From UHGV virus genome UHGV-0225074: DNA of 64,000 bases; one strand, given 5' to 3'. A program made the position numbers and the translations under genes. Under the pieces are notes generated by a model. That model had not been told where the DNA came from, did not search any database, and saw nothing but the letters and a program-made list of their open reading frames with translations. Of this stretch, positions 12-45,920 are shown piece after piece; position 1 is the first letter of the stretch, and each line of letters starts with the position of its first letter. The DNA is from a virus.

Positions 12-1103
12 ATGACGATCGACAAAATTGCTTTCCGTCCTCAGTCAAGCCTCTCTCGTACAAAACCTTTTGTCTTCAGCGATGATGGAAGGACAATCAC
101 AGGTGTTTATCAAAGCGCATTAGCTTTTGCTAATTTCCAGAACGGGATGAACCAGATTGCTGGGGCTATGAGTCTCGTCACAAATCTGTCAGGAAATGCG
201 GATGAGAAATTCATCCCTGTGAATAAGTTGATGATAATGTCTCTTGGTGGGACAGAATCAAACCCTACAGGTGTATCACCTCTTGTTGGTTGTTACCGTG
301 CATTCCGTGAAAAAATCCTGATCGAAAACCTTGAAGTTATAGGGGCATCTAAGGACCTCGGTGGTATCATTGAATTAAAGATCCCTTCTTCAATTCTGAA
401 TAAGGCGTCTATGGACCCGAGATCACCTGAAGCAGATATGGTTCGTGGTCTGATGGCTGACGCTGCAAACGCACACTCAGGTGAACAATCTTACTTCATC
501 TTACCTTCAGATATGAATGATAAGGGCGGTGAGCAGTATAAGATGACCCTTAAGGGAATCGATGGGGTTGGTAAACAGTATAGTACCAAGGATCTAATAC
601 AAGAGCGTAAGAAGGCGATCTTGGACAGATTTGGTGCGGGATTCATCAACTTAGGTAATGATGGTCAAGGGTCTTACAACCTGTCGGAATCAAAACAAAC
701 AATCCACGGGCATTTTGTTCAACGAGATATCGATATTATTTGTGAATCATTCAACAAGAACTTGATTCCTCAACTACTCGCTCTTAATAATATCCGTTTG
801 TCTGATGAAGACATGCCGAGACTTAAGCCTGGAGCTATCCAGGAAGTTGATATGGAAAGCTTCTCCAAATTTGTTCAGAGAATTGGTGCTGTTGGTTATC
901 TGCCGAAGACACCTACAGTTATCAACAAGATCCTTGAGGTTGGTGGGTTTGATGAAGAGATTCCTGAAAACACATCTCAAGAGGAACTACTCAAGATCCT
1001 TGGGGAAGATACCAGTCGCTCCGGTGATGGAATGAAGCAAGGTACTTCTGGTAATGGGACGTCTAAAGTAAGAGATAATTCTGTCTCTAACTTGGATAAC
1101 TAA
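12..1103 (+). CDS. head morphogenesis protein, possibly C-terminal part of portal (5' partial; frame open to window edge)
   Basis: ORF in frame with no stop back to position 1; sits immediately upstream of protease-scaffold-decoration-MCP block; polar Gly/Ser-rich C-terminus. Confidence 0.35.
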   Translation: MTIDKIAFRPQSSLSRTKPFVFSDDGRTITGVYQSALAFANFQNGMNQIAGAMSLVTNLSGNADEKFIPVNKLMIMSLGGTESNPTGVSPLVGCYRAFREKILIENLEVIGASKDLGGIIELKIPSSILNKASMDPRSPEADMVRGLMADAANAHSGEQSYFILPSDMNDKGGEQYKMTLKGIDGVGKQYSTKDLIQERKKAILDRFGAGFINLGNDGQGSYNLSESKQTIHGHFVQRDIDIICESFNKNLIPQLLALNNIRLSDEDMPRLKPGAIQEVDMESFSKFVQRIGAVGYLPKTPTVINKILEVGGFDEEIPENTSQEELLKILGEDTSRSGDGMKQGTSGNGTSKVRDNSVSNLDN

Positions 1104-1121
1104 GCAACTCACTGAAATAAC

Positions 1122-1150
1122 TTGCAAAAGAAAATAAACGGTGTTAAAAT
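1122..1150 (+). promoter_or_regulatory. late-type promoter TTGCAA-N17-TGTTAAAAT
   Basis: good -35, 17-nt spacer, extended -10; upstream of the protease-scaffold-MCP operon. Confidence 0.5.
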
Positions 1151-1167
1151 AACTATCAACGGGGAAA

Positions 1168-1797
1168 ATGATGAAATACTCAAGTATTGCTGACCTTCCT
1201 GCATCAGTATCGAATCTGTCTCTCATTCAGAAGAGCAAGGTGCTGGTTCTCGCAAATGGCCTGATTGATTCAGGCCTATCTCCTGAAGCCGCTATTGAGA
1301 AGGCATCTAAAGATGTACTCCATGTAGGGCTGAAGAAGACAGCAATTCAAAAGAATGCCAAGCCTGTATCTGTTGTCAAAGATACTGGAGAACAAATGAT
1401 TTCTTACGAAGTCATTTATGAACCAAACACTAGGGATGCCCACGGTGAATGGATGTCTCCAGAGACAATCGTCAAAGGTAAGGAAAGTTTCGATGCTGCG
1501 CGAGCGGCTGGTCTTGTTAAAGAGAACCTGTTCCACATTGTCGAGACTGATGCCTTTACCATCGAGAAGACTTGGATTCAAGAAGAGTTTGATGTCGTGG
1601 TTATCGGTAGCGAGCAAATCATTAAAGCTGGCACCTGGGTAGCTAAGGTTAAATACAATGATCCTGAACTGTGGCTCTTGAAAAAGGCCAACGCTGTCGG
1701 TGGACTGAGCATTCAATGCTCTGGCTACACAGACAAGGAGACTGGTGAAATCACCGGACTCGATTTCGGGATTGAGATTGCCGAGGAAAACGAATGA
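1168..1797 (+). CDS. putative prohead maturation protease
   Basis: 209 aa, position between portal-like gene and scaffold; His (DAHGEW) and Ser (GGLSIQCSGY) motifs loosely resembling HK97/T4-type prohead proteases; preceded by TTGCAA-N17-TGtTAAAAT promoter. Confidence 0.35.
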   Translation: MMKYSSIADLPASVSNLSLIQKSKVLVLANGLIDSGLSPEAAIEKASKDVLHVGLKKTAIQKNAKPVSVVKDTGEQMISYEVIYEPNTRDAHGEWMSPETIVKGKESFDAARAAGLVKENLFHIVETDAFTIEKTWIQEEFDVVVIGSEQIIKAGTWVAKVKYNDPELWLLKKANAVGGLSIQCSGYTDKETGEITGLDFGIEIAEENE

Positions 1798-2789
1798 GCG
1801 CACTCGTAGTCAAGGCCAAAACTATTAAGGATAAGGGTATCGCACTCTGCCACGAGAGTCAAGGTTATTCTGCAAATATGCGTCCGGTTAGTCTTCTGAT
1901 GAAGTCTGACCTTGCACCTGAACAGATTACCAAAGACGTGGTTAAGGCACTTCGCCAAGTTACTGTCGATATGAGCTTTGAAGAATTCCTTCGTCGCTTC
2001 TTCGATATGTGGAGTAGTGATGCTGAACTCCTTGCCAAACTTTTGGGCTTCGAAACAGAACTGGAAAACGCTGCTGCTGAAAATCCTGATGATGAATGGC
2101 TGCAACGTTGGAATGATGATAACCAAGAATGGTTAGAATCGAAGATGGAGTCCATCTCTATCGCCAAAGCTGCAAATGCAGGTGAAGAGCTGGACCTTGT
2201 GAAGCAATATGAACTAATCAAACTCCAACAGATGTTTGAGAAGGGTGTTGCAGAGCACGGTGTCATTTTTGATGCCAAAGACACTCAGGAGACTGAGGTC
2301 ATCAAGGACGCTGCTAAACCAGACGTACCTGTTCAAAATACAATTGAAAACAAGGAGACCTCTGTGTCCGATACTGTTGATGTAACCAAATCCCAGGAGT
2401 ACCTGGACCTGGTTAAAAAGCTTGAAGAAGCTAATGCAAAAAATGCCCAAGCAGAACTGATTATCAAGGCTGCTGTTGAAGCAGAAAAGAAAAATGCTCT
2501 TACAAAAGCCAAAGGTTTTACTTTTGCCGCTGAAGAAGACCATGAATCTCTTGCTGACTTCATCATTGAAAAAGCTAACGCCCCAGTGGTAGCTCTTCTG
2601 GAAAAAGCCCAAGCTCGTATTAGCGAACTGGAAACAGAAGTTGAAACTGTGAAGAAAGAGTTCGGTACTCAGGAAAATGGTATCAACCAAGAGGTTGTTA
2701 CTGAAGACCTAGCTAAGTCCGCCGAAGATGTTCTTAAAGCTAACGTGCAGAAAGCTCTAGAAGCTGCTCGCGCTCGCAAAACTGCCTAA
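1794..2789 (+). CDS. scaffolding protein
   Basis: 331 aa, highly acidic, Ala/Glu/Lys-rich predicted coiled coil, directly upstream of decoration and major capsid genes; start overlaps upstream stop. Confidence 0.55.
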   Translation: MSALVVKAKTIKDKGIALCHESQGYSANMRPVSLLMKSDLAPEQITKDVVKALRQVTVDMSFEEFLRRFFDMWSSDAELLAKLLGFETELENAAAENPDDEWLQRWNDDNQEWLESKMESISIAKAANAGEELDLVKQYELIKLQQMFEKGVAEHGVIFDAKDTQETEVIKDAAKPDVPVQNTIENKETSVSDTVDVTKSQEYLDLVKKLEEANAKNAQAELIIKAAVEAEKKNALTKAKGFTFAAEEDHESLADFIIEKANAPVVALLEKAQARISELETEVETVKKEFGTQENGINQEVVTEDLAKSAEDVLKANVQKALEAARARKTA

Positions 2790-2808
2790 TATCGAGGAGA
2801 TAATATAA

Positions 2809-3231
2809 ATGGCTAATCCGATTCAAGGGTTCTACTCTGACATCGTCCTGGGTAAAGTTGATTCTTCTGATCAGGGCTACAGCTTCCTGGAAATGGAAAT
2901 CACCTATTCCGCAGGGCTGAAGGCTGGGATGATCGTCAAGTCTGATGGTACTCTGGCTGCAACTGCCGACGCTGCAAGCGCATTTGGTGTAATCACCGAC
3001 CGCGACCTGGTGACTTCTTCTTACACCATGCCACGTCCTTTCGTAGTTGGTCAAAAATACAATTTCGTGGTTGCTGTTCGTGGTCTGACCCTGAACAAAT
3101 CCAAACTGTTCTTTGCTGATGGTACTACTGCTATCAACGCTGCTGCTATCGCTGCTCTTGAGGCCAAAGGTCTGAAGATCACTGATAAATATTACGACGG
3201 CTCCGTTGAGATCCCAGTAACGTCTATCTAA
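2809..3231 (+). CDS. putative head decoration protein
   Basis: 140 aa, strong SD GAGGAGATAA, high-expression codon usage, located between scaffold and MCP. Confidence 0.4.
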   Translation: MANPIQGFYSDIVLGKVDSSDQGYSFLEMEITYSAGLKAGMIVKSDGTLAATADAASAFGVITDRDLVTSSYTMPRPFVVGQKYNFVVAVRGLTLNKSKLFFADGTTAINAAAIAALEAKGLKITDKYYDGSVEIPVTSI

Positions 3232-3251
3232 TCTACACCAAGGAGAAAATA

Positions 3252-4265
3252 ATGGCAGTAGTACGCACTAATGATTTCCAGATCGTCGACCTAGGCGCAA
3301 CTCTGGAAATTGTACCTCGTCAGTACCGTATGATCACCAACATGAACCTTTTCGAGGCTTATCACGGTGTTTCCACTATCGCTCAGATCGAGCGTGTTGA
3401 TGAAATGGTTACTGACTTCCCGGCCCGTCGTCGTCAGGGTGAACGTAACTACGTTGGTACTGAAAAGGCCCAACTGAAAAACTTCAACATTCCGTTCTTC
3501 CCGCTGGATCGCCAGATCACTCCGGCAGACGTGCAGAACTTCCGTAAATATTTCACTGCGGACGCTCCTAAATCTGTACAGGATGTAGTTGAACGTGTTG
3601 TTCGTCGTATCCGTATTTCTCATGAACAGCTTAAAGAAAAAGCAATGCTTCAGGCAATCATGGGTAAATCTTGGGCACCGCAGGACCCGACTGCACAGTA
3701 TAACTACTTCACCGAATGGGGTGTTACCCAAGAAGTTGTTAACGTGGATTTCACTGACGTTGCAGTTGACCCGTCTGACCTGATCGAAAACGATGGTCGT
3801 GCATTCATCATCGACAACGCTGGTGACAACGGAAACAACTATGACATCGTAGTCCTGGCTTCTCGTAAATGGTTCTCTGCTTTCGTAGGTCACCCGCTGA
3901 TCATGAACGCATACCAATACTACAGCTCTACTCAAGAGCCGCTGCGTCGTCGTCTTGGTGACGGACAAGAGAACGCTAACAACCGTTCCTTCGTTCACAA
4001 GAACGTTCTGTACATCGAAGATATCTCCGGCTACATCCCGGACGGTGAAGCTTACATGCTGCCACGCGGTATCGACAACATGTTCCAGATCCACTATGCG
4101 CCAGCAGATGATGTTCGTGAAGCGAATACTCCGGCACAAGAGCTGTACCTGTGGTACAAATCTTCTGCTTACCTGCGTGAAGAGAAGGTAGAGTCTGAAA
4201 CTTCCTTCCTGACAGTTAACTGCCGCCCAGAGCTGGTTGTTAAACTGACTGGTACTTTCGCATAA
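3252..4265 (+). CDS. major capsid protein
   Basis: 337 aa, strong SD AAGGAGAAAA, highly biased codon usage (cgt/ctg/ggt), followed by strong intrinsic terminator; canonical position after scaffold/decoration. Confidence 0.7.
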   Translation: MAVVRTNDFQIVDLGATLEIVPRQYRMITNMNLFEAYHGVSTIAQIERVDEMVTDFPARRRQGERNYVGTEKAQLKNFNIPFFPLDRQITPADVQNFRKYFTADAPKSVQDVVERVVRRIRISHEQLKEKAMLQAIMGKSWAPQDPTAQYNYFTEWGVTQEVVNVDFTDVAVDPSDLIENDGRAFIIDNAGDNGNNYDIVVLASRKWFSAFVGHPLIMNAYQYYSSTQEPLRRRLGDGQENANNRSFVHKNVLYIEDISGYIPDGEAYMLPRGIDNMFQIHYAPADDVREANTPAQELYLWYKSSAYLREEKVESETSFLTVNCRPELVVKLTGTFA

Positions 4266-4287
4266 TATAGCTTAAAGCTACCTCTAA

Positions 4288-4321
4288 GAGGGGGAGGTGT
4301 TAATCACCTCTCCCTTTTTTC
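4288..4321 (+). terminator. rho-independent terminator downstream of major capsid gene
   Basis: GGGAGGTG ttaat CACCTC(T)CCC stem-loop followed by TTTTTTCATTTT. Confidence 0.7.
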
Positions 4322-4383
4322 ATTTTAAGATTAGCATGGTGATCTTATATGTCAAGAGGTTTATGAGGATCAAAGGAGATTCT

Positions 4384-4917
4384 ATGGCAAATCAAAATTA
4401 TCGCATTTTCCCGAACAAGGTAGAGCTTTTCAAGTTCTTTGGTGCATACATTCCCGAATTGAACATTAGTGCTTCAAGCCGCTTACCCCTAAATGGCTTC
4501 GCCCTTGGTAAGCAAATGAAGGCTTTTCGTTCTTTCATGGAGTTCTTCCAGGAACTTGCAGACCTGTCCGGTCTTCCTGTAGATACTAAGGCCTCCACTC
4601 TGAGAATGGGCAACTTTATCGTATTCTTTAATGGTGAGATTACACCACCTTCTGATGTTAAGTCGCCCGTGGCTAAACAAAAGGTTGAAGAAACCGTGGT
4701 TGCACAGGGTATAGAAGATAATGCAAAAGCAAATGAGCAAATAAAGCCAGATGTGAAAGCAATTATTGCGGAAGCCTCTGCTTTACGAGATGATGCTGAT
4801 AAGAAAGGCAGCAAAGATAAACTTGCTGAATTCGCAGCAAACAAAGGTGTTACTCTGTCGAAGACCAAGACCTTCGAAAACATGTTAGTTGATCTTGAGG
4901 CAGCGCTGACAGCTTAA
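4384..4917 (+). CDS. hypothetical structural protein
   Basis: ATG at 4384 with SD AAAGGAGA; the track ORF starts at 4297 inside the terminator and was trimmed; Lys/Ala-rich C-terminus. Confidence 0.45.
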   Translation: MANQNYRIFPNKVELFKFFGAYIPELNISASSRLPLNGFALGKQMKAFRSFMEFFQELADLSGLPVDTKASTLRMGNFIVFFNGEITPPSDVKSPVAKQKVEETVVAQGIEDNAKANEQIKPDVKAIIAEASALRDDADKKGSKDKLAEFAANKGVTLSKTKTFENMLVDLEAALTA

Positions 4918-4933
4918 GCCTGGGAGGTAGAGT

Positions 4934-5566
4934 ATGTCAATAGCTTCGGCTGGTGTAGCGGGTGTTGTTTATGGAAGAACGCTTGTAAGTCAAAAGACTG
5001 GCAAGAAAATTGATTTTGATGACATTGGTGGTGATGGGATCCAAGGGCCACCAGGTCCAGAGGGGCCTCAGGGGCCTACCGGACCAAAGGGAGACCAAGG
5101 GGAAAGCGGTATTACAACACACAGAGTAAAATCCGAGTGTTATTTTACCGGACTTAACCTTGTTGTTGGTACAACCCCTAGTAACCTTATCAGCCTAATA
5201 AAATCTTTACCGCATACAGGATCGCTATCTCCGTTCTTTAACACGACGACCAATAAGCTGAATGTTTTTAATGAAGATGCAACCTGTGATTTTAAGTTGA
5301 ACATTACTGGTTCATGGGGAGGCTCTACTGTAAATAGAAGTATGACGATAGATTTCCCACAAACAAACGGTAACTCACTGACAAAGACCAGAGATGCTCA
5401 AGTAACATCTGACATATTATCATTTCCAACATTTTTCAGTGTGGACAAGAATGGAAACTTGGCAACAAACGGCAGTGATATCACACTGGTCTCTAATGGT
5501 GCCAGCTTTACAATAACATCTTTACTGATCATCGCTGAACAATTAATCCCGACCACAATGGTCTAA
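4934..5566 (+). CDS. collagen-like repeat fibre protein
   Basis: G-X-Y triplets GIQGPPGPEGPQGPTGPKGDQGESG; N-terminal motif SAGVAGVVYG shared with next ORF; SD GGGAGGTAGAGT. Confidence 0.5.
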   Translation: MSIASAGVAGVVYGRTLVSQKTGKKIDFDDIGGDGIQGPPGPEGPQGPTGPKGDQGESGITTHRVKSECYFTGLNLVVGTTPSNLISLIKSLPHTGSLSPFFNTTTNKLNVFNEDATCDFKLNITGSWGGSTVNRSMTIDFPQTNGNSLTKTRDAQVTSDILSFPTFFSVDKNGNLATNGSDITLVSNGASFTITSLLIIAEQLIPTTMV

Positions 5567-5586
5567 CTTCTAAGGAGAAGTAAAAT

Positions 5587-5886
5587 ATGGCAACATCTGG
5601 TGTAGCAGGACTGGTCTACGGTACAAAACTGATTGACCTTGCAACTGGCGGGGTTATTTCCTTCGCTGATGTAATCGCTGCCGCAGGCGGCGGTGGAGCT
5701 GTGGCATGGGCCGACATTACTGGCAAGCCTACCACTTTTGCTCCCGTGGCTGCAACCACTTCTGTGGTGGGTGGTGTTAAAATGGCAGCAACACAGGCCA
5801 ATACGGTTGCGACTGACGTAGCTGGACTGGTTACCGACTTTAATGCCCTTCTTTCCAAGCTGAAGGCTGCTGGCATTATGGCATAA
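5587..5886 (+). CDS. Gly/Ala-rich fibre-like protein, paralogous N-terminus to 4934..5566
   Basis: 99 aa; N-terminus MATSGVAGLVYG matches MSIASAGVAGVVYG of the upstream collagen-like gene; SD AAGGAGAAG. Confidence 0.45.
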   Translation: MATSGVAGLVYGTKLIDLATGGVISFADVIAAAGGGGAVAWADITGKPTTFAPVAATTSVVGGVKMAATQANTVATDVAGLVTDFNALLSKLKAAGIMA

Positions 5887-5890
5887 TATA

Positions 5891-5917
5891 AAGGCCCTCC
5901 GGGGCCTTATTTTTTTA
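5891..5917. terminator. bidirectional rho-independent terminator
   Basis: AGGCCC tccg GGGCCT followed by TTATTTTTTT on the + strand and overlapping the stop of the - strand moron gene. Confidence 0.7.
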
Positions 5918-6305
5918 GTAGCGGTCTCGCCTCTGGTTTCAAAGATACCTGAAGATAAGGTTGTCGGCCATCTTTATAATATTTACAGATGTAAGTTCCT
6001 GTTGCAAGAACAGTACCGTTCACTATCCCCATATTTCTCATTACTTGGAAACTATCTTCTTGTTCTTCCATCTCATCTAACATACCTGTCTGCGTCGTCA
6101 GAGTGCCGGGAATGAATGCCTTTCTGAATTCTGTATCACATTTCATCCCCGCGATACGATGAATGGCCTCTGTTTTTTCTTCAGCCGACAACCAGCTCGA
6201 AGAAACATCGTCAAACTTGTTCATATTGGGATTGGTTTTCATAAAGTAGATAAGTCCGCCAGAGACAACTATGGCTGTGATAACACCTGCTATTACTGCT
6301 TTCAT
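5907..6305 (-). CDS. membrane-anchored hypothetical protein (reverse-oriented moron in the structural module)
   Basis: ATG at 6305 with SD GAGGAG; N-terminal TM helix (AVIAGVITAIVVSGGLIYF) then ~110 aa soluble domain; opposite strand to all neighbours; own TTGACA-16-TATTCT promoter. Confidence 0.55.
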   Translation of the reverse strand: MKAVIAGVITAIVVSGGLIYFMKTNPNMNKFDDVSSSWLSAEEKTEAIHRIAGMKCDTEFRKAFIPGTLTTQTGMLDEMEEQEDSFQVMRNMGIVNGTVLATGTYICKYYKDGRQPYLQVSLKPEARPLLKK

Positions 6306-6331
6306 GGGATTCTCCTCAATAATTTTCTTTG

Positions 6332-6359
6332 AGAATAGCATCCTGTCACATGATGTCAA
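6332..6359 (-). promoter_or_regulatory. sigma70-like promoter for the moron gene
   Basis: reverse complement reads TTGACA-16 nt-TATTCT about 25 nt upstream of the SD. Confidence 0.4.
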
Positions 6360-6368
6360 GTGTTTTTG

Positions 6369-6397
6369 ATGACAAAATCGACGTTCTATGATAAGAT
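6369..6397 (+). promoter_or_regulatory. sigma70-like promoter (extended -10) for the 6430 operon
   Basis: ATGACA-17 nt-TGATAAGAT; a TTGATAAATAG element also present downstream. Confidence 0.35.
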
Positions 6398-6429
6398 ATT
6401 GATAAATAGAAGAGCTTGAAGGAGCAAAA

Positions 6430-6948
6430 ATGACAGACCAAGAAATTGTTGCTTATATCCGCCTGCTCCTTGGGTCCATTTCCCCGGAAGTCTTACCCGA
6501 CGAGATTATCCTTGCCTTTTTGGCAATAGAGAAATCAAAGGCTAATTACCCCAGTGATGATAACACGCCATGCACCGTTTACTACGTTATTTACAATACC
6601 CTTGTTGACGTGGTACGTTGGTTGATTCTTCAGGAAGTGAACACAGGAGAGGCATCAATCACGGATCGCCTTGAAAAGATTGGTGATGAAACTATCCAGA
6701 TTAAAGGTGGTTCTCCTTATCAAAACTGGAAAGACTTCCTCGACTGGCTGCTTGAAAACCCTGACTATGTTAATGATTGCTTAAGCGCAGTCAGAGGACT
6801 CGTCATTGTTGGTGGCGTTCGTGAAGACGAGTTCAACCGTGTCAAATACGACAGAAACTCCCGTGGACCTTTCGATGTTGGTGGCATAATTCCACAGACT
6901 GGAGTGCCAGGAATTCCTCGTCGATACCCTCGCCGTTGGCCTTACTAA
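6430..6948 (+). CDS. hypothetical virion protein (head completion/neck region)
   Basis: 172 aa, SD GAAGGAG, first gene after the moron in the neck cluster. Confidence 0.4.
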   Translation: MTDQEIVAYIRLLLGSISPEVLPDEIILAFLAIEKSKANYPSDDNTPCTVYYVIYNTLVDVVRWLILQEVNTGEASITDRLEKIGDETIQIKGGSPYQNWKDFLDWLLENPDYVNDCLSAVRGLVIVGGVREDEFNRVKYDRNSRGPFDVGGIIPQTGVPGIPRRYPRRWPY

Positions 6949-37270: not shown

Positions 37271-37840
37271 CTACCCCCCAAAAGATGAGCGACTGCTAAC
37301 AGAGCTACCAAAACCACCACGAGAAGATGTGGTGCTACGAGAAACCGTTGTACGAGGAGACTGTACTGTTGGCTTTGCCGCAGAGCTTGTCACCTTGAAC
37401 GTTTGACCAGGTCGTGCATTGTAGCTACGGAACTTGTTGTCCATATACTGACCTGAACGATCCTGATACAGCGGTGCTGAATGATAACCGGAATTCATGC
37501 TATTACCCATCATGTACCCCATCATCAACGGCATCCACGAAGAACCACCATCTGAGCTGCTTGGGTTGTGTCTGCACTGGTCACCGAACTCCGCGTAGCA
37601 GTCAGAATAAGTCGCATAGCGTGGTGCAGTTTCATTTGCAACCTTTTCTGCTTCTTGTCTTGCTGCCCGACAATGATCCGGTTTGTGAGTATCTGCAATA
37701 CACTCATCAACATTTTTGTACATCTTCATGTCAATGTCTGCTTGCTCACAACCTGCAACTGTGATTGCCACCGCGAATGGCAGGGCATAACGCCCCACCT
37801 TGCGAAAAGCATTCTTATTGATATGCTTTGTTCTCTTCAC
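37271..37840 (-). CDS. lipoprotein, DUF1190 family (YgiB/YjfM-like)
   Basis: MKRTKHINKNAFRK...AGCEQ lipobox, APRYATYSDCYAEFG, SSWMPLMMGYMMG, RGGFGSSVS closely parallel my recollection of E. coli YgiB. Confidence 0.55.
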   Translation of the reverse strand: MKRTKHINKNAFRKVGRYALPFAVAITVAGCEQADIDMKMYKNVDECIADTHKPDHCRAARQEAEKVANETAPRYATYSDCYAEFGDQCRHNPSSSDGGSSWMPLMMGYMMGNSMNSGYHSAPLYQDRSGQYMDNKFRSYNARPGQTFKVTSSAAKPTVQSPRTTVSRSTTSSRGGFGSSVSSRSSFGG

Positions 37841-37848
37841 TTTTCACC

Positions 37849-38031
37849 TTACTTATAGTCTGGTAACCCTGCTGCCAATAATCCACCAACTGCCCCGACC
37901 GTCATCCCTGTACCTAAGACCCACCCAAATTCCATAGTTCCGAATTTAGCTCCGCCGCACAGAGCTACTGTTATGGAGCACATAATGACTCCAAAAAATA
38001 CTGCCAAGAACATAATTACCCGAGTTTTCAT
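37849..38031 (-). CDS. small membrane protein
   Basis: 60 aa, mostly hydrophobic. Confidence 0.3.
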   Translation of the reverse strand: MKTRVIMFLAVFFGVIMCSITVALCGGAKFGTMEFGWVLGTGMTVGAVGGLLAAGLPDYK

Positions 38032-38246
38032 ACTGCACCTGAACTTATGCCAAAAGAGGCCATACCAAGAAGTAATCCAGAAGCACTACCGACTGCAACA
38101 GATGTTTCAGTGTACTCACCGAAACCCAGCGTTCCGAACACCTGACCAGCACTGATAGCCAGATAATACCCAAGTGCGATAGAAATTCCAAGTACAATAA
38201 AGAACACTGAGACACTGATGGCTGCGGGGATGATTAAATCACGCAT
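38028..38246 (-). CDS. small membrane protein
   Basis: hydrophobic ~72 aa; internal start chosen to limit overlap with pnuC. Confidence 0.3.
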   Translation of the reverse strand: MRDLIIPAAISVSVFFIVLGISIALGYYLAISAGQVFGTLGFGEYTETSVAVGSASGLLLGMASFGISSGAV

Positions 38247-38961
38247 GTGTGGTTTCCTTTTCTGTTTTACGCCATTTGTAAGCACCGTACACAGAGTTTA
38301 ACAGGAAAGTTACCCACATTGCAAGGACTGCCCACCCTTGTGTTTCATGATGCATTGCTGTCTGAATCCACAGAGCCACAGCAACCACGTTAACAATAAT
38401 CCACACATACCATTGTTCTGCATAACGAACCATCATCAGGTAGGTTGCCAGAACCGACAGGATTGCTGTAGCAGAATCGAGACCCGGCATACTCCCTTTC
38501 AGCAGGCTAACGAACTCGGCGTATAATCCGATCGTCACCAATGTCCCGATACCAACAATCCAGCGCTGTTTTGTGGTCAGATACTTCTTGATGACATCCG
38601 CACGTTCACCATCCGCAGAGACGGTTAACTTACGCGCCCAGATTACCCCTCCAATGACCTGCATGGGGGTGAACAACAGGGTGTACATAATCGTCTCACC
38701 GTACAACTTGTACGTGAAGGAGATATATGCATACAGCACCGTTGCCACAAAGCCCCAGTAATAACTGGAGAGCTTACCTTTTGCCACCAGGATAGCCCCG
38801 ATGATCCCGGTGACAGAAGAGATGAACTCTACTAACCCACCGCCCATAGTCAAGGAGACAATGGCGATCGATGCCGAGCAGATGAGGAGCCAAAGGTATT
38901 CAAGTTTTGACCAGCCATAAAAGTCGGTCCATGCTGTCTTAATGTACAGATTTGTATTCAT
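38239..38961 (-). CDS. pnuC: nicotinamide riboside transporter PnuC
   Basis: 240 aa, ~7 TM helices, signature EQWYVWIIVNVVAVALW (cf. E. coli PnuC ENWLLWVIINVISV); co-located with NadR. Confidence 0.6.
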   Translation of the reverse strand: MNTNLYIKTAWTDFYGWSKLEYLWLLICSASIAIVSLTMGGGLVEFISSVTGIIGAILVAKGKLSSYYWGFVATVLYAYISFTYKLYGETIMYTLLFTPMQVIGGVIWARKLTVSADGERADVIKKYLTTKQRWIVGIGTLVTIGLYAEFVSLLKGSMPGLDSATAILSVLATYLMMVRYAEQWYVWIIVNVVAVALWIQTAMHHETQGWAVLAMWVTFLLNSVYGAYKWRKTEKETTHA

Positions 38962-38963
38962 GG

Positions 38964-39221
38964 TTATTCTCCTGTTAATCGTTTAAGAAGCGCTTCGATT
39001 TTAGGATTCGCCGCGCCGTTACCGTATAACTTATACTTCAGATCCAACACTGCGTCAAGCAGTTCTGGTGCTGCTGCGATAAGATTTGCATCTTCAATAC
39101 TATTAATCTCTGAACACACGTCGCTGTAAGATCGCCACCCGGAACCTACCTCAAGAGAGCCTGAGACAATGACCTTTATTTCATCGTCATCATGAAATAC
39201 TTCCCATGTATCTTTAGCCAT
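38964..39221 (-). CDS. hypothetical protein with LIAAAPELL motif (Ead/Ea22-like C-terminus)
   Basis: 85 aa; ANLIAAAPELLDAVLDL motif common in lambdoid early proteins. Confidence 0.35.
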   Translation of the reverse strand: MAKDTWEVFHDDDEIKVIVSGSLEVGSGWRSYSDVCSEINSIEDANLIAAAPELLDAVLDLKYKLYGNGAANPKIEALLKRLTGE

Positions 39222-39450
39222 TTTTGCGCCCCTTTTTCTTTTTATTTTTCATTTCTGACCGAACTTTAGTTTGCCAAGCCATTGCTTCGTCAACAGCATT
39301 CGGTCCGTCAAAAACTTGGTTCTTCTCATCTGACTTGAACACAAAATTAGTACCTTTGTTATCCATTGCCTGGAAAACCCAGCCTGTCAGTGTCTCCTCG
39401 ATGATCTTACCTCCGATCAGTAGACCATTACTTTTTGCATGAATAGCCAT
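39214..39450 (-). CDS. hypothetical protein, Lys-rich C-terminus
   Basis: internal ATG (MAIHAK) chosen so that it abuts the upstream gene. Confidence 0.3.
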   Translation of the reverse strand: MAIHAKSNGLLIGGKIIEETLTGWVFQAMDNKGTNFVFKSDEKNQVFDGPNAVDEAMAWQTKVRSEMKNKKKKGRKNG

Positions 39451-39452
39451 TT

Positions 39453-39602
39453 TTAACCCTCCATTACAACTGGTAAGACAGACCTGATCCCATCTCTCCA
39501 TGCCAACCAACACATTAACTGGAGGATTTCACGCTCCTCTGCATCTGGATAAAGATGTACTGGTGCGTTTTTATCAAACCAGTCCATAAATTCTTTAGAC
39601 AT
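39453..39602 (-). CDS. small hypothetical protein
   Basis: 49 aa from MSKEFMDWFDK. Confidence 0.25.
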   Translation of the reverse strand: MSKEFMDWFDKNAPVHLYPDAEEREILQLMCWLAWRDGIRSVLPVVMEG

Positions 39603-39933
39603 TTTGACTCCTCTGTTTTGCCCATTCGATTGCCGCAAGTATCACATCACAGTGACATGCTACCTCTTTGTTCGGCTGTTTACAGAAGCATACAAGGTCT
39701 TTACCATCCAAGTCAAGCAAATCTTGAATAGTAATTTTCCCCGAACGTATCTGTTGCCATAACCATACACGGTATCGTTCAATGGTTGCTCCACGGGGTT
39801 CATCTTTCGACAACTTATATGGATTGGCAAATTTAGATTGCTTCAAGCCTAGATGGGGCATTGCTCGCCCCATGTATTCAGCATTCTCAGGTATCACTTT
39901 ACCAATGTGGTAGAAGTTGAGTACCTTAGCCAT
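39595..39933 (-). CDS. DUF4326-like protein
   Basis: FANPYKL...YRVWLWQQI...LDGKDLVCFCKQPNKEVACHCDVIL matches the conserved Cys/His pattern of the DUF4326 family as recalled. Confidence 0.45.
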   Translation of the reverse strand: MAKVLNFYHIGKVIPENAEYMGRAMPHLGLKQSKFANPYKLSKDEPRGATIERYRVWLWQQIRSGKITIQDLLDLDGKDLVCFCKQPNKEVACHCDVILAAIEWAKQRSQNV

Positions 39934-40171
39934 TGACCAGTTCCGGATGTAGGCGACGGTACAACTCCTGAGTCAACTCGCGAATCCAGATAACGATAGG
40001 GACTTGCAGATAAGTATCCAGCAGGTCAGAAGGGTCATCTGTCCCAGGTTCTACCAGCAACCAGTTTATAGCGTTAACAATATGCTCATCAGACATGTGG
40101 CTAATTCGCATATCAAAACCCTCCTGGGTTTTCCAGACCAGGGTCGGCTTAGTTTGCTCCATCTTTATCAC
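39926..40171 (-). CDS. hypothetical protein
   Basis: 81 aa ORF. Confidence 0.3.
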   Translation of the reverse strand: MIKMEQTKPTLVWKTQEGFDMRISHMSDEHIVNAINWLLVEPGTDDPSDLLDTYLQVPIVIWIRELTQELYRRLHPELVNG

Positions 40172-40514
40172 CTTTCAGATATGCGATGATCCAGTCTGCC
40201 GCTTCTTCGAACCCCTCATAACCAAAGAATTTCCGGCGATTGAAATAGGTATCGTCCGTAGGGATGTTGGTTTGGAAATTGAAGTCCCGTGTTGACCCAT
40301 AGTACACAGTGATCTGGTCACTGTTACGGCATTCAGAGAATGACACTTGACGACAATTATCTTGCCCACCTGAGTAGTCCAACTTCATGATGGAGAAGCC
40401 CTGCTCACGGCAGTTCGCATAGGCCTGGAGGCCCTGGCCTAACTCTGGATCTTTTTCAAGGACGAGCTTTAATACACCAAACGCTTGGTACATACTTGAG
40501 TTTGTAACATCCAT
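40149..40514 (-). CDS. hypothetical protein co-transcribed downstream of nadR
   Basis: 121 aa, stop/start 2 nt from nadR. Confidence 0.35.
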   Translation of the reverse strand: MDVTNSSMYQAFGVLKLVLEKDPELGQGLQAYANCREQGFSIMKLDYSGGQDNCRQVSFSECRNSDQITVYYGSTRDFNFQTNIPTDDTYFNRRKFFGYEGFEEAADWIIAYLKGDKDGAN

Positions 40515-40515
40515 C

Positions 40516-41589
40516 TTATTCTCCTTTTATATTCAGCAATTTACGGACAGCTTCTTCGGCTTTCTGAGTACGTTCTTTGTAATCACTGCCGGAGATAACC
40601 ACCACCTTGCTTGTATCGTAAGATGCTCTGATCATTGTGTCAAGCAAAGAATGTGTTTCTTTACGTTTTTCTGGTGTATCCTGCAAGCGAAGAGGATCAG
40701 CAACCCACGGGACCTCTGGTGTGAGGAACAGGAATAGGTCGTAGAAGTTGTAGCTCTCTTCACGGCTCAGTGTGCGGAACAGAAGATCGGAGTAGTCGAT
40801 CTTGTCTGCACAAATACCAGAGAAGTGGGTGATCAGGTTTGTGGTGTCAGAGAACATAACCCCACAACCACCACAGCCAGCCAATTCCATCTCCTTCAGG
40901 CGATGCTCCATTGCGATACGCAGGTAGTCTCCACGAGACATTGCTAACTCACTGGAATGGTATTCACGCTCACAGATAAGCCGTCCGACCTCAGGAATCC
41001 AACCAGCACCGAAGGTATGCGCCAGATGCCGTGTCAGTGTGGTCTTGCCCGTACTCTCAACCCCAATGATGGCAACCTTCTTCATGAAGCGCTTACGTGC
41101 AGGCCACGCTAGGTTGTAGAAGTTGTTGTACGGATCATTACGGATCATCGTGGCTGAGATAGGAACAGCTTTACGTTCTGCGTCGATAACTACATGCTTC
41201 GCTTCAGGGAAGAACTCACTGAAGTAAGACTCATACTCCGGCTCAGAAGAGAAAGCAAAATCGTACTTAACGAACGGTTGCTTTTCACGGATCAGTTTTG
41301 CATAGGCAGCACTGCCTTCAGGGTATCCTGGGATATTCGACTCATCAACGTAGTCAACCTTCACGTTGTCCAAGCCCTCATCGGCAATAACATCCAGCAG
41401 GTCACGATAGCGATCAGCAAGACCCAACTTTGGACGAATCCATTCTGGTTGTGCGTCAACGAATTTCTGGTCATAGGACAGGAACAGATACAGAGCACTA
41501 ACCTGTTGCGCCGCCTGACGAATAAAGGCAATATGCCCGTTGGTCAGGGGTGCAAACTTACCGAAGATAAGGCCGCGAGTCATTGTCAT
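40516..41589 (-). CDS. nadR: bifunctional NMN adenylyltransferase / ribosylnicotinamide kinase (NadR-like, no HTH domain)
   Basis: GLIFGKFAPLTNGHIAFIRQA (HxGH nucleotidyltransferase motif) and VAIIGVESTGKTTL P-loop align with the E. coli NadR NMNAT and RNK domains. Confidence 0.75.
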   Translation of the reverse strand: MTMTRGLIFGKFAPLTNGHIAFIRQAAQQVSALYLFLSYDQKFVDAQPEWIRPKLGLADRYRDLLDVIADEGLDNVKVDYVDESNIPGYPEGSAAYAKLIREKQPFVKYDFAFSSEPEYESYFSEFFPEAKHVVIDAERKAVPISATMIRNDPYNNFYNLAWPARKRFMKKVAIIGVESTGKTTLTRHLAHTFGAGWIPEVGRLICEREYHSSELAMSRGDYLRIAMEHRLKEMELAGCGGCGVMFSDTTNLITHFSGICADKIDYSDLLFRTLSREESYNFYDLFLFLTPEVPWVADPLRLQDTPEKRKETHSLLDTMIRASYDTSKVVVISGSDYKERTQKAEEAVRKLLNIKGE

Positions 41590-41873
41590 TTGTTTTTCTC
41601 CATTGAATCTATTGATGATTCGGCAACTGCCTTGTCAAACTTTGCTTTTGCAATTTCCAGCTCAAAGGCCGCGATTTTCAAATTGGCAAGTGTGATTTTG
41701 CTTTGAAGTTCCATCCTACGAGCGGACTGCTCCTCGACCGATTTCAATCCTTTACCATAGGACCGCAGCATGTCTGGAGTCTCCTCCTTGATAGGAGTAG
41801 TAGCTTGTGCAACAAAAGATAACGCAAACAACGTAACGAAGATAATCTTTTTCATGATTAATCCTTTTGGCAT
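41586..41873 (-). CDS. secreted coiled-coil protein
   Basis: signal peptide MKKIIFVTLFALSFVAQA, Ala/Lys/Glu-rich helix. Confidence 0.35.
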   Translation of the reverse strand: MPKGLIMKKIIFVTLFALSFVAQATTPIKEETPDMLRSYGKGLKSVEEQSARRMELQSKITLANLKIAAFELEIAKAKFDKAVAESSIDSMEKNK

Positions 41874-42172
41874 TTGTAAACTTGTGCCACACGAGTTACT
41901 GATTTTTTGGTCGGATTGATAGAAGAACCCTGATACCAGCGAGACTCCTCGCTCAGGATGTTCCCTACCTGTGCGTCCTTTTTTGGGATCACGGTGTCGA
42001 TGCAGGTCTCACCCATGCTATCCTTCATATGGGACCAGATGCTCAGGGAGAAGCGCTCAATTTTATTGCACACCTCAACCTTGCACATCGGTTCGGTTTG
42101 GAAATCATCATCTTCTGCATGGGATGCCGCAACAAAGGCCATAGCCAGCAGAGCAATCGTTAATTTTTTCAT
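41858..42172 (-). CDS. secreted Cys-containing protein
   Basis: signal peptide MKKLTIALLAMAFVAASHA; 5 Cys in the mature region. Confidence 0.35.
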   Translation of the reverse strand: MKKLTIALLAMAFVAASHAEDDDFQTEPMCKVEVCNKIERFSLSIWSHMKDSMGETCIDTVIPKKDAQVGNILSEESRWYQGSSINPTKKSVTRVAQVYKCQKD

Positions 42173-42781: not shown

Positions 42782-42815
42782 ACACCCTCCAGGTTATTTA
42801 GCTTCCATAACAATA

Positions 42816-42847
42816 AAGCCCCTCAACCATGAAGTCAAGAGGCTTTT
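42816..42847 (-). terminator. possible weak terminator hairpin
   Basis: AAGCCTC ... GAGG(GG)CTT imperfect stem on the - strand, moderately U-rich tail. Confidence 0.25.
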
Positions 42848-43677: not shown

Positions 43678-43890
43678 TTAGTTTTTTAAGATGCCGCGTT
43701 CTTCAAGAATCGCGACTAATTGTGCTTCTGTTGCCCGGTACGTAAAGGAGTGCAACATTTTCTTTGCAGTTATGTACGCACACCCGAACTCATTGCATAT
43801 CCTTTGGTAAGGATTTTCTGGAGGAGCGAACCCCTCCAGACATGCAATGAGTCTATCAGTTACCGGGGTTGGTTGCAACCCCGTTTTCAT
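43678..43890 (-). CDS. small hypothetical protein
   Basis: 70 aa, ATGA-coupled to the upstream large gene. Confidence 0.3.
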   Translation of the reverse strand: MKTGLQPTPVTDRLIACLEGFAPPENPYQRICNEFGCAYITAKKMLHSFTYRATEAQLVAILEERGILKN

Positions 43891-45920
43891 CAGAATTTAA
43901 TCTTCAGGGTGCGGTTGAAAGAACCAGTAACCTTCACAACCAACTCATTACGCTGGGTAGACGAGAAGCCCAGGCCGCTCAGTTGATCAGCGGAGTGTTC
44001 AGCTTTGAGCTTGGAACCCAACACTTCGAACACTTTACGATGCTCATGCAGCTCGTCACGCAGATATTCATTGTAGAAGCCACGAGTATCGTCAGGGTTA
44101 ATGCAACCTTCCAGCATAAAGAAGTAATGTTTGTTACCTTTGGTCTGACCATCCCAGAAGTTAGGAGAATTCAGCACCAGAGAAACTTTCTGGAAGGTCT
44201 CGGTAGAGACGCCCCATACTTCTTTAGATTGCTTAGTATGCCCGATGCTGTCTACAATTTCAACACCTTTCGCACGAGAATACTTAAAGGTTACAACGGT
44301 CTGGCTCTTGCTATTACCCAAAGCTTGCGGGTATGCGAAGTTGAACACTTGGCCTTTGTATTCCATCTGGACTTCAAAGCCAACGCGATCAGTCATGCGC
44401 TTATTATAGTTGTTAACAACAACCTTGTAAACACCTTCCGTGATATTACGCTCATTTTCCCACGTAACGTTCTCAACCGGATGGTGTGCGTCTGACTTGC
44501 CATAGGCATTCATATCCACATCCAGCGTACCCGTTGAGCGACCACGTTTGTGACCGAAGTAAATTTGACCACCACCCGGCTCGAATACGTGCAGGTCGAG
44601 GTCATCACTGTTGTACCAAGACAACGAAACACGCAGGTCACCAGTAACGCTACCGCCAGCGGCTTTCACACGCTCCTTGATGGAGTCAGCTACTTCGCCA
44701 TTATACGACCAAGAGAAGCCGTTATCCCATTTGAATAGGTTAGGAGCACCTGCGTTTGCCGGGGCAACCAAGCTCATCAGGTTCGGTGTCAGACGACCTT
44801 CAACCAGCGCCTCGATAGTGTCCGCTTTCGGTAGAACGTTGTTGATGAAATCCTCAATGCTGATCTCTTCTACTTTCGACAGTGACTTCGGCGCGTTTTT
44901 GGTTGACGCTGCCAGTTGCTCGAATACGTTCATCTGGGCCTTTGCAGAACGGTCAGCAAACAACACGTTGTTGATCGTCAGGTCAGAGGTCACCGCAAAG
45001 CGACGTGCCAGAGATTCAGTCAAGCCGAGGGCTTCAACCTTCTCTTGTGCTGCCTTGATCATGCCCGGAGTTACCAGAGCTGTAGTACGCTTGTAGTTGG
45101 TCCCTGAGACTTTGTCTTCAAAGGACTTCACTGCGGATTCAAGATCAATACCTTCTGCCAGATCGCTCATCAGTGTACCGATGACATCATTACGGAAGCG
45201 GCCCAGTTTACCCAGCGTTTCACTTTGTTTCCAGCAGAAGTTCATTCGCTGATCTTCCGGCGTTTTGTCGTATGCACGTTTCGCCTTAATAAAGGCAGCA
45301 ACAATGTGCTTTTTCTCATCACCACGATACAGAGAGCCTTGGTTGATCAGGTCCATTACCGTTTCGGCAGAGTCCATATCGATATCTTTCAGAGAACGTG
45401 CCAGCACAGTTGCGTTGTCACGGTACTCACCTAGGGCCGAAGGGATATCTTCACCACGTTTAACCAGCTCGCGAGGCAGGGCCTGATGGAAGTGGGTCCA
45501 GGTTTTGGTTTTCCCATTTTCCAGCAGAGCTACGTTGCTCTCAGTACCAACGCGGCCTTCAAAGTGGAAGAAGCGATCGCGGATCTCGGAGCTTTCAACA
45601 CGCGCTTTCATCGCATCGGCAACAACTTGGTAGTAACCACCAACTTTAACGTCCCAAATAGAGACCAGCTTGCCGTTGTGAATCGCGACTACTCGGCCCA
45701 GAGTACGGATGTAGCTCTTGCAGCAGTTACAGTCATATTCACGGCGCTCTTTATACATCAGGTTGGTGCCTTCCGGGAAAGAATCGAGATACAGGTCGTA
45801 CAGTTCATCTTTCGGTACATCGACCGTGTAAAGCGCACCCAGCGCTTGCATGACAGCGAACTGAGCTTTCAGAGCTTTTACGAAGTCAGCGTAAGGTACG
45901 GTTTCATATTTTGCGGTCAT
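43890..45920 (-). CDS. large hypothetical early protein (676 aa) with N-terminal CNCC cysteine cluster
   Basis: long ORF with a good sigma70 promoter and SD (ACAGGAGAACGA); no family recognised by eye. Confidence 0.5.
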   Translation of the reverse strand: MTAKYETVPYADFVKALKAQFAVMQALGALYTVDVPKDELYDLYLDSFPEGTNLMYKERREYDCNCCKSYIRTLGRVVAIHNGKLVSIWDVKVGGYYQVVADAMKARVESSEIRDRFFHFEGRVGTESNVALLENGKTKTWTHFHQALPRELVKRGEDIPSALGEYRDNATVLARSLKDIDMDSAETVMDLINQGSLYRGDEKKHIVAAFIKAKRAYDKTPEDQRMNFCWKQSETLGKLGRFRNDVIGTLMSDLAEGIDLESAVKSFEDKVSGTNYKRTTALVTPGMIKAAQEKVEALGLTESLARRFAVTSDLTINNVLFADRSAKAQMNVFEQLAASTKNAPKSLSKVEEISIEDFINNVLPKADTIEALVEGRLTPNLMSLVAPANAGAPNLFKWDNGFSWSYNGEVADSIKERVKAAGGSVTGDLRVSLSWYNSDDLDLHVFEPGGGQIYFGHKRGRSTGTLDVDMNAYGKSDAHHPVENVTWENERNITEGVYKVVVNNYNKRMTDRVGFEVQMEYKGQVFNFAYPQALGNSKSQTVVTFKYSRAKGVEIVDSIGHTKQSKEVWGVSTETFQKVSLVLNSPNFWDGQTKGNKHYFFMLEGCINPDDTRGFYNEYLRDELHEHRKVFEVLGSKLKAEHSADQLSGLGFSSTQRNELVVKVTGSFNRTLKIKF

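Follow-up and report, generated by a model that had tools for sequence, protein, structure and literature searches.

We analyzed a 64,000-nucleotide stretch of the virus genome UHGV-0225074 (hereafter the window), which carries on its minus strand a nadR-like gene followed by pnuC. Both open reading frames (ORFs), of 357 and 240 amino acids, lie exactly at the positions given in the original prediction, and the window belongs to a Klebsiella myovirus, a Mydovirus of the KB57 group (Vequintavirinae). The locus is very probably a nicotinamide riboside (NR) salvage module of a virulent phage, of the type that Yan et al. (Sci Adv, August 2026; PMC13464706) named NARP3 for the proteins Bas30_86 and Bas30_87 of Escherichia phage TrudiRoth. 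In that system the PnuC-like Bas30_87 binds and imports NR, and Bas30_86, which has no helix-turn-helix (HTH) domain, converts NR to nicotinamide mononucleotide (NMN) and then to NAD+; crystal structures are available (9X6H, 9X6F; PMC13464706).

Identity and domain architecture of PnuC and NadR

Profile searches assign the 240-residue membrane protein to the PnuC family, as had been predicted. It matches the PF04973 NMN_transporter profile with an E-value of 6.2e-39 and 134 bits (gathering score 27), the NCBIfam PnuC equivalog TIGR01528 with 115.6 bits (cutoff 42.45), and phrog_1880, annotated as "PnuC-like nicotinamide mononucleotide transport", at 4e-80. The match to 4QTN, the solved NR transporter of Neisseria mucosa, reaches 1.3e-41, with 35% identity over 222 ungapped positions. 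The protein has ∼8 hydrophobic segments and carries the WxxWxxxN motif at EQWYVWIIVN. Against NF011926, which describes the enterobacterial chromosomal PnuC subfamily, it scores 55 bits (cutoff 335) and thus falls outside that subfamily; we read it as a member of a phage clade and no recent copy of a host gene.

The 357-residue protein had been predicted to be a bifunctional NadR, and the domain assignments bear this out. Pfam places CTP_transf_like (PF01467), the NMN adenylyltransferase (NMNAT) domain, at residues 8–151, and AAA_28 (PF13521), the P-loop domain that the profile searches assign to the ribosylnicotinamide kinase (RNK) of NadR, at residues 171–340; the match to phrog_3462 stands at 1e-138. 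The alignment to NF005988 spans profile positions 65–408 of 411 and leaves positions 1–64 unmatched, and because it begins only at position 65, we infer that the N-terminal HTH repressor domain is absent; TIGR01526 likewise matches from profile position 65 onward, without the HTH part. Among structures in the PDB, the best match is 9X6F, which is Bas30_86 itself (8e-58, residues 5–352), followed by 8X7F (2e-29), 1LW7 (1e-25) and 6GYE (1e-24). For both proteins, matches of this strength lie far outside what chance would give. Both sets of catalytic motifs are intact: TNGH (16–19) and ISATMIR (144–150) in the NMNAT domain, and the Walker A motif GVESTGKT (176–183) and Walker-B-like VMFSDT (244–249) in the kinase domain.

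For comparison with the CHARACTERISED system, we fetched the proteins of the TrudiRoth locus and aligned them with those of the window. The window NadR is 35.4% identical to Bas30_86, and of the 20 residues singled out by the Bas30_86 structure-function study, 16 are identical (window positions K11, F12, S38, E83, P87, Y89, G92, Y96, F113, S115, V142, I144, K166, K171, E233 and D284), two are conservatively changed (D115 to E118, R167 to K170), and two differ. The residues found to be essential by mutation in Bas30_86 follow the same pattern: K10, F11, S37, E80, P84, G89, F110, S112, V139, I141, E230 and D275 are identical in the window, and D115 is conservatively replaced. The window PnuC is 37.8% identical to Bas30_87 and keeps two of its three docked NR-contact residues (Q94 as Q101, N180 as N191).

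The gene string from orf104 to pnuC

The original prediction treated NadR and PnuC as one module. The two genes do lie in one string, nadR first and pnuC second on the same strand, but they are not neighbors: 1,554 nt with six small ORFs separate them (Table 1). Reading of the sequence together with the ORF list shows that every junction from orf104 to pnuC is either an overlap or a gap of ≤3 nt, and orf49 fills the sole apparent gap in the operon. Between nadR and pnuC, a consensus scan of the minus strand found no strong terminator-like site (stem ≥6 pairs); its sole match, a weak one with 5 pairs, lies inside nadR (41538..41526). No Rfam element, including the riboswitch classes pnuC motif/NAD+-II and nadA, was found across 36–44 kb. 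From nadR through the six small ORFs to pnuC, the genes are a gap-free, translationally coupled string without strong terminator-like sites or Rfam elements, and they are therefore most likely co-transcribed with the early/replication block.

Table 1. Features of the minus-strand string that contains nadR and pnuC, listed from its upstream boundary to pnuC.
Feature	Coordinates	Strand	Description	Matches and basis
Terminator-like hairpin	42815..42846	-	14-bp stem; a promoter-like site overlaps it; bounds the tightly packed string upstream	consensus scan only
orf104	41858..42172	-	small secreted protein, highly conserved; signal peptide, four conserved Cys, ESRWYQGSSINPTKKSVTRV core	phrog_6894
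orf95	41586..41873	-	stop overlaps nadR start (ATGA); predicted signal peptide (MKKIIFVTLFALSFVAQA); variable small secreted/envelope protein	phrog_16511
nadR	40516..41589	-	NadR-like, 357 aa; N-terminal NMNAT (∼4–151), C-terminal RNK P-loop (∼171–340); no HTH	PF01467, PF13521, NF005988, phrog_3462, 9X6F
orf121	40149..40514	-	start 2 nt past nadR stop; lineage-restricted; predicted alpha/beta5/alpha fold; invariant YANCREQGF and FSECRNSD motifs	phrog_6319
orf81	39926..40171	-	small, overlaps both neighbors	phrog_16964 (6e-41); conserved in 4MG, divergent in KB57
DUF4326 gene	39595..39933	-	DUF4326 protein, 112 aa	PF14216 (2.4e-18); same position in KB57, 4MG and PVP-SE1-like loci
orf49	39453..39602	-	ATG overlaps DUF4326 stop codon (ATGTCTAA); preceded by GAGGAG	direct sequence reading; ORF list has upstream TTG start (39453..39638)
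orf78	39214..39450	-	likely true start ATG 39450, preceded by GGAGGG	phrog_8602 match runs from residue 22 onward of the mechanical ORF (99 aa); KB57_028 has 78 aa
orf85	38964..39221	-	ends 2 nt ahead of pnuC start	phrog_1273; 98.8% identical in KB57
pnuC	38239..38961	-	PnuC-family NR transporter, 240 aa	PF04973, TIGR01528, phrog_1880, 4QTN

The split layout, with orf121 and the DUF4326 gene, is common to KB57, 4MG and PVP-SE1-like loci. Two segments of the string (39934–40519 and 41609–42161) show no DNA alignment to KB57 although their flanks are 93–95% identical, and the small accessory genes (orf81/orf121 and orf95/orf104) appear from these alignments to be exchanged in mosaic fashion. One could thus regard nadR and pnuC as independent cargo of a variable accessory region, functionally uncoupled from each other: 1.55 kb and six ORFs intervene, the segment is mosaic, and coverage among relatives ranges only from 62 to 92%. 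We consider this highly improbable, since strand and order are those of every other lineage, intergenic space and strong terminator-like sites are lacking, and the two genes are kept together in all relatives examined; in Bas30, moreover, neither gene functions alone (PMC13464706).

The three neighbors that had been flagged as co-operonic with nadR (orf121, orf95 and orf104) proved to be real members of conserved families. The predicted structure of orf121 has a TriTu-like immunity fold. A sequence-profile search in the PDB found no link between orf121 and TriTu; the likeness is therefore at the level of the fold only, and that fold is a common binder architecture. According to a published proposal, the DUF4326 family is a rhodanese-phosphatase clade with phosphates derived from ADP-ribose as its substrates (PMC9503650); for the window protein no relative was found in the PDB by sequence; its PHROG/RefSeq label, "ribonucleotide reductase NrdA-like", looks like a misnomer. 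Upstream of nadR, orf95 is only 34–37% identical in KB57 and PVP-SE1-like loci.

The orf104 family comprises 264 phage records, in which the signal peptide is variable, the four cysteines are conserved and the core given in Table 1 is almost invariant. Its homologs recur beside the module in four phage lineages: in Bas30 one follows pnuC (Bas30_0088, 55% identity), in Eneladusvirus jumbo phages one precedes nadR (72% identity), and others flank the module in 4MG and PVP-SE1-like phages, and in a metagenomic lineage (L017–20). This linkage is facultative. No orf104 homolog lies within 5–6 kb of NadR/PnuC in Aeromonas T4-like phages, Salmonella 7-11, RCIP0023, Pantoea Survivor or two metagenomic lineages, and orf104 as an obligate third NARP3 component was rejected, since neither the complete KB57 genome nor the FBKp34 locus contains it.

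Other genes around orf104 homologs were also recorded. In metagenomic contigs L017–L020, the gene string that holds orf104-NadR-PnuC also includes, ∼3 kb upstream of them, a gene for an ADP-ribosylglycohydrolase (PF03747). In contigs L021–L024 (5001–6204), a 92-residue homolog stands directly upstream of Acb5-family (PF26761) and DUF7695 genes, with no NadR/PnuC nearby, in what looks like an anti-defense neighborhood.

These neighbors allow a more elaborate reading of the Vequintavirinae-type locus, as an expanded NARP3 operon or "inhibit, recycle and import" island in which the accessory genes work with NadR and PnuC. In it, orf121 would bind and block a NAD+-consuming host effector (an ADP-ribosyltransferase or NADase) through its TriTu-like fold, the DUF4326 phosphatase-like protein would process ADP-ribose- or NMN-derived phosphates, and the secreted 104-residue disulfide protein would act in the periplasm to raise or protect the NR supply. 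We regard this reading as quite doubtful. The residual leads of the locus are nonetheless these: a split operon with DUF4326 and TriTu-like genes, and a conserved secreted 104-residue neighbor.

Directly downstream of pnuC (37271..38285, minus strand) lie genes for two small hydrophobic proteins (85 and 60 residues) and a DUF1190 protein whose N-terminal signal is lipoprotein-like, so that small envelope-targeted proteins flank the NadR-PnuC module on both sides. Farther upstream, a 676-residue ORF (43890..45920, minus strand) is conserved in phages (phrog_1735, E 5e-298) and has no Pfam or NCBIfam match.

Relatives, distribution and the proposed salvage route

A megablast search with the 37.5–42.5 kb segment matched 64 phage records, the top matches being ∼143 kb Klebsiella myoviruses: VIK251 (94.4% identity, 92% coverage), then Iguana_ER37, KpS8, KB57 and Mydo. 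The window is collinear with KB57, which is classified in the genus Mydovirus of the Vequintavirinae, from KB57 position 56356 down to 1, wrapping to 142987 and on to ∼139400. The window PnuC matches KB57_030 at 100% identity, and the window NadR matches KB57_023 at 98%. The genes were already annotated: records of relatives name the nadR-like gene "nicotinamide-nucleotide adenylyltransferase" (or "NadR type") and pnuC "PnuC-like nicotinamide mononucleotide transport", and the same genes are listed in the genome paper on a Vequintavirinae Salmonella phage (PMC11358711). No publication on both PVP-SE1 and nicotinamide salvage turned up in a literature search. Four phage records (OY979426.1, OY978796.1, OY978784.1 and OY757067.1) carry unrelated feature names under the NadR/PnuC matches (for example "Sir2", "ATP-dependent DNA ligase", "tRNA nucleotidyltransferase"), which suggests that their coordinates and product names are out of register.

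Beyond these relatives, a tblastn search of 50,697 phage records found NadR homologs in 724 and PnuC homologs in 819. Counts by genus are nearly equal for the two proteins (NadR/PnuC: Salmonella 176/177, Klebsiella 48/47, Escherichia 38/38, Bacillus 24/24, Lactobacillus 18/18, Erwinia 14/14), indicating that they co-occur; the figures for Vibrio, which include ICP1, are 302/384. The order nadR-then-pnuC on one strand is kept in T5-like, Stephanstirmvirinae, Eneladusvirus, Vequintavirinae-like and metagenomic loci, with a spacing of 1 nt in Bas30, an overlap in an Erwinia jumbo phage and metagenomic relatives, and a single 61-residue ORF in FBKp34. The NARP3 paper, by comparison, counted 124 close T5-like operons (PMC13464706), far fewer than the records found here.

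Gene identity, domain architecture, conservation of motifs and residues, compactness of the operon and distribution are established. The biochemistry that PnuC and NadR would carry out, from NR through NMN to NAD+, is very likely the one proposed here by analogy with Bas30_86/87, the NadR of H. influenzae and E. coli, and the PnuC of N. mucosa. In this scheme PnuC would admit NR across the inner membrane, the C-terminal RNK domain of the HTH-less NadR would phosphorylate NR to NMN and so trap it in the cell, and the N-terminal NMNAT domain would adenylate NMN with ATP to yield NAD+. The phage would benefit by keeping or rebuilding the NAD+ pool during infection, including against NAD+ hydrolysis of the Sir2, TIR and DSR types. 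Because the repressor domain is absent, NadR would be a pure enzyme under phage control, and its expression from a phage operon would uncouple NAD+ synthesis from the NAD+ homeostasis of the host.

Several points weigh against reading the locus as a NARP3-type module. The window NadR falls below the curated cutoffs of TIGR01526 (175.5 vs 341.15) and NF005988 (160.1 vs 201); it is by its sequence a divergent phage branch, and its function is therefore drawn from Bas30_86 and from its motifs rather than from equivalog membership. Two pocket residues of Bas30_86 are changed (W90 to S93, D164 to R167), as is one of the three NR contacts of Bas30_87 (N45 to G52), where the reference contacts come from docking and not from a solved complex. 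Both proteins share just over a third of their residues with their Bas30 counterparts, and the wide spacing of nadR and pnuC (1.55 kb) departs from the compact two-gene operon by which NARP3 is defined. Enterobacterial hosts own pnuC and nadR themselves, so that the added value of a phage copy hinges on expression level and NR availability. Finally, the published evidence for anti-defense activity comes from plasmid co-expression with T7 and lambda, not from deletion in a native phage (PMC13464706).

Some of these points could also mean that the route is incomplete, either because the transporter carries another substrate (a different vitamin or nucleoside of the Pnu family) or because the NadR-like protein has lost one of its activities. 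The Pnu family does include transporters for substrates other than NR, and the scores below the NadR equivalog cutoffs and the differences in pocket residues from Bas30_86/87 point the same way. Such an incomplete route is very unlikely in our view: the PnuC equivalog TIGR01528 is matched well above its cutoff, the ungapped identity to the NR-bound 4QTN is substantial (35%), both motif sets of NadR are intact, and the linkage of PnuC with NadR is kept across many lineages.

The gene content of relatives raises the question of whether imported NR is the only source of NMN for NadR. KB57 encodes a Nampt-family phosphoribosyltransferase, a phosphoribosyl pyrophosphate (PRPP) synthetase (Prs), and SIR2-family and NADAR proteins, all verified with Pfam (68995–71536, 76542–77318 and 82570–83076). 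It has no NMNAT besides NadR, its "nucleotidyltransferase" KB57_159 being of the RlaP type. These genes lie outside the part of the KB57 genome that the window covers, and neither Nampt nor Prs was found in the window; their presence in the window's phage is therefore inferred from relatives. In the Klebsiella phage FBKp34 (Stephanstirmvirinae; 907–6942 of the locus), Nampt, an HNH endonuclease and Prs are divergent from and adjoin nadR-(61 aa)-pnuC, and this locus is a single NAD salvage island with gene sets of both the NARP2 and the NARP3 type. One candidate NAD+ consumer, a NAD+-dependent DNA ligase in the window, was rejected: the window ORFs that correspond to the small "DNA ligase" ORFs of KB57 have no ligase domain, and the KB57 ligase is ATP-dependent.

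Because close relatives also encode Nampt and PRPP synthetase, NadR is probably the shared last step of two routes, that from imported NR (NARP3) and that from nicotinamide through NMN to NAD+ (NARP2-type). The proposal that NadR and PnuC form a complete NR-to-NAD+ module thus stands, but the module is probably not the sole route. A stronger version would make NadR mainly the NMNAT that completes nicotinamide recycling by Nampt and Prs, with NR import through PnuC minor or conditional. It draws on the near-identity of the proteins to those of KB57 (NadR 98%, PnuC 100%), where Nampt and PRPP synthetase occur and no other NMNAT does, on the adjoining genes in FBKp34, and on the fact that NADase defenses make nicotinamide in place, whereas NR must come from outside the cell. 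Yet the lineage has kept both the RNK motifs and pnuC in full, as would be expected if the NR route were under selection too, and Nampt and Prs are placed in this phage only through its relatives. We hold this stronger version to be possible, if rather improbable.

The purpose of the module may equally be asked of general metabolism. Here the module would be an auxiliary metabolic one and not an anti-defense system, increasing NAD+ whatever the immunity of the host, to meet the heavy needs of the phage in nucleotide and redox reactions (ribonucleotide reductase, thymidylate synthase) and those of its NAD+-using Sir2-like and NADAR proteins, like the pyridine-nucleotide scavenging of KVP40. It lies in the early/replication block beside DNA polymerase and helicase genes, KB57 encodes SIR2, NADAR, ribonucleotide reductase and thymidylate synthase proteins, large phages very commonly carry homologs of NadR and PnuC, and a jumbo-phage survey reads them as a means of independent NAD+ synthesis (PMC11662467). 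Against an exclusively metabolic role stands the finding that phages overcome Sir2-HerA and DSR1 when the homologous pair is expressed (PMC13464706), although the two roles are not mutually exclusive; we judge an exclusively metabolic role possible but unlikely.

The corresponding claim of the original prediction, that the route could counter NAD+-depleting defenses, has support from the homologous Bas30_86/87. Their co-expression restored NAD+ and rescued T7 and lambda from Sir2-HerA and DSR1, rescue was also obtained for Klebsiella phages in K. pneumoniae, and the half-maximal effective concentration of NR was ∼4–6 µM (PMC13464706). For the phage studied here an anti-defense benefit is plausible by this analogy, and it is inseparable here from a general metabolic benefit or from an NMNAT role in the Nampt route.

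Comparison with known systems

The module is not new: its genes have long carried these annotations, the pathway was predicted in 2024, and its demonstration, as NARP3, followed in 2026. Iyer and colleagues catalogued phage NadR as a NAD+ synthesis enzyme (PMC9503650), and Osterman et al. (bioRxiv 10.1101/2024.02.11.579819) noted in their discussion that phage NadR and PnuC are usually encoded in one operon and could constitute an additional pathway of NAD+ reconstitution. The original prediction had likewise set the route apart from NARP1 and NARP2, which is what was shown for Bas30_86/87 (PMC13464706).

The locus resembles NARP1 (Adps and Namat; Osterman et al. 2024) in purpose only, the rebuilding of NAD+ during infection. 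Its enzymes and chemistry are unrelated to that pathway, which proceeds from ADP-ribose (ADPR) through ADPR-PP to NAD+, and no homologs of NARP1 were seen in the window. With NARP2 and the NadV-NatV pair of KVP40 (Nampt and NMNAT; Osterman et al. 2024) it shares the purpose and the predicted last step, from NMN and ATP to NAD+, and the Nampt and Prs of relatives would supply NMN to the same NadR. In contrast, the window NMNAT belongs to the NadR type and is fused to a kinase, while that of NARP2 belongs to the NadM/NatV type and is fused to Nudix; and the predicted input is imported NR, while that of NARP2 is nicotinamide and PRPP.

Bacterial PnuC/NadR salvage (H. influenzae 1LW7, E. coli 8X7F, N. 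mucosa 4QTN) shares with the locus the families, the motifs and, by prediction, the trapping of NR by RNK after facilitated entry through PnuC. Enterobacterial NadR differs in having an N-terminal HTH repressor domain, which the window NadR lacks, and the window protein further differs from bacterial NadR in scoring below the curated equivalog cutoffs. In E. coli, pnuC and nadR lie at separate chromosomal loci (PMC13464706, discussion).

The closest counterpart is NARP3 itself. The window and Bas30 have the same two families, the same HTH-less NMNAT-RNK architecture, the same gene order and strand, and the same predicted chemistry, with 16 of the 20 named NadR residues and 2 of the 3 PnuC residues kept. 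Apart from the divergence and spacing weighed above (1,554 nt and six ORFs vs 1 nt), they differ in the phage that carries the genes, a Vequintavirinae myovirus in one case and a T5-like siphovirus in the other, and in the embedded and adjacent accessory genes of the window (DUF4326, the TriTu-like orf121 and two secreted proteins), to which relatives add Nampt and Prs.

Together, these comparisons indicate that an unaided reading of sequence can correctly infer a real anti-defense or metabolic pathway, here one already published. They offer modest leads for work on phage counter-defense and for the engineering of therapeutic Klebsiella phages, and no new kind of system. NARP3-type modules reach well beyond the T5-like operons in both spread and divergence: over 700 phage records contain them, among which are Vibrio ICP1-like, Bacillus, Enterococcus and jumbo phages. 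Conserved small genes interrupt the module in Vequintavirinae-like phages, where Nampt and Prs occur as well, so that NadR would serve as a hub for two salvage routes.

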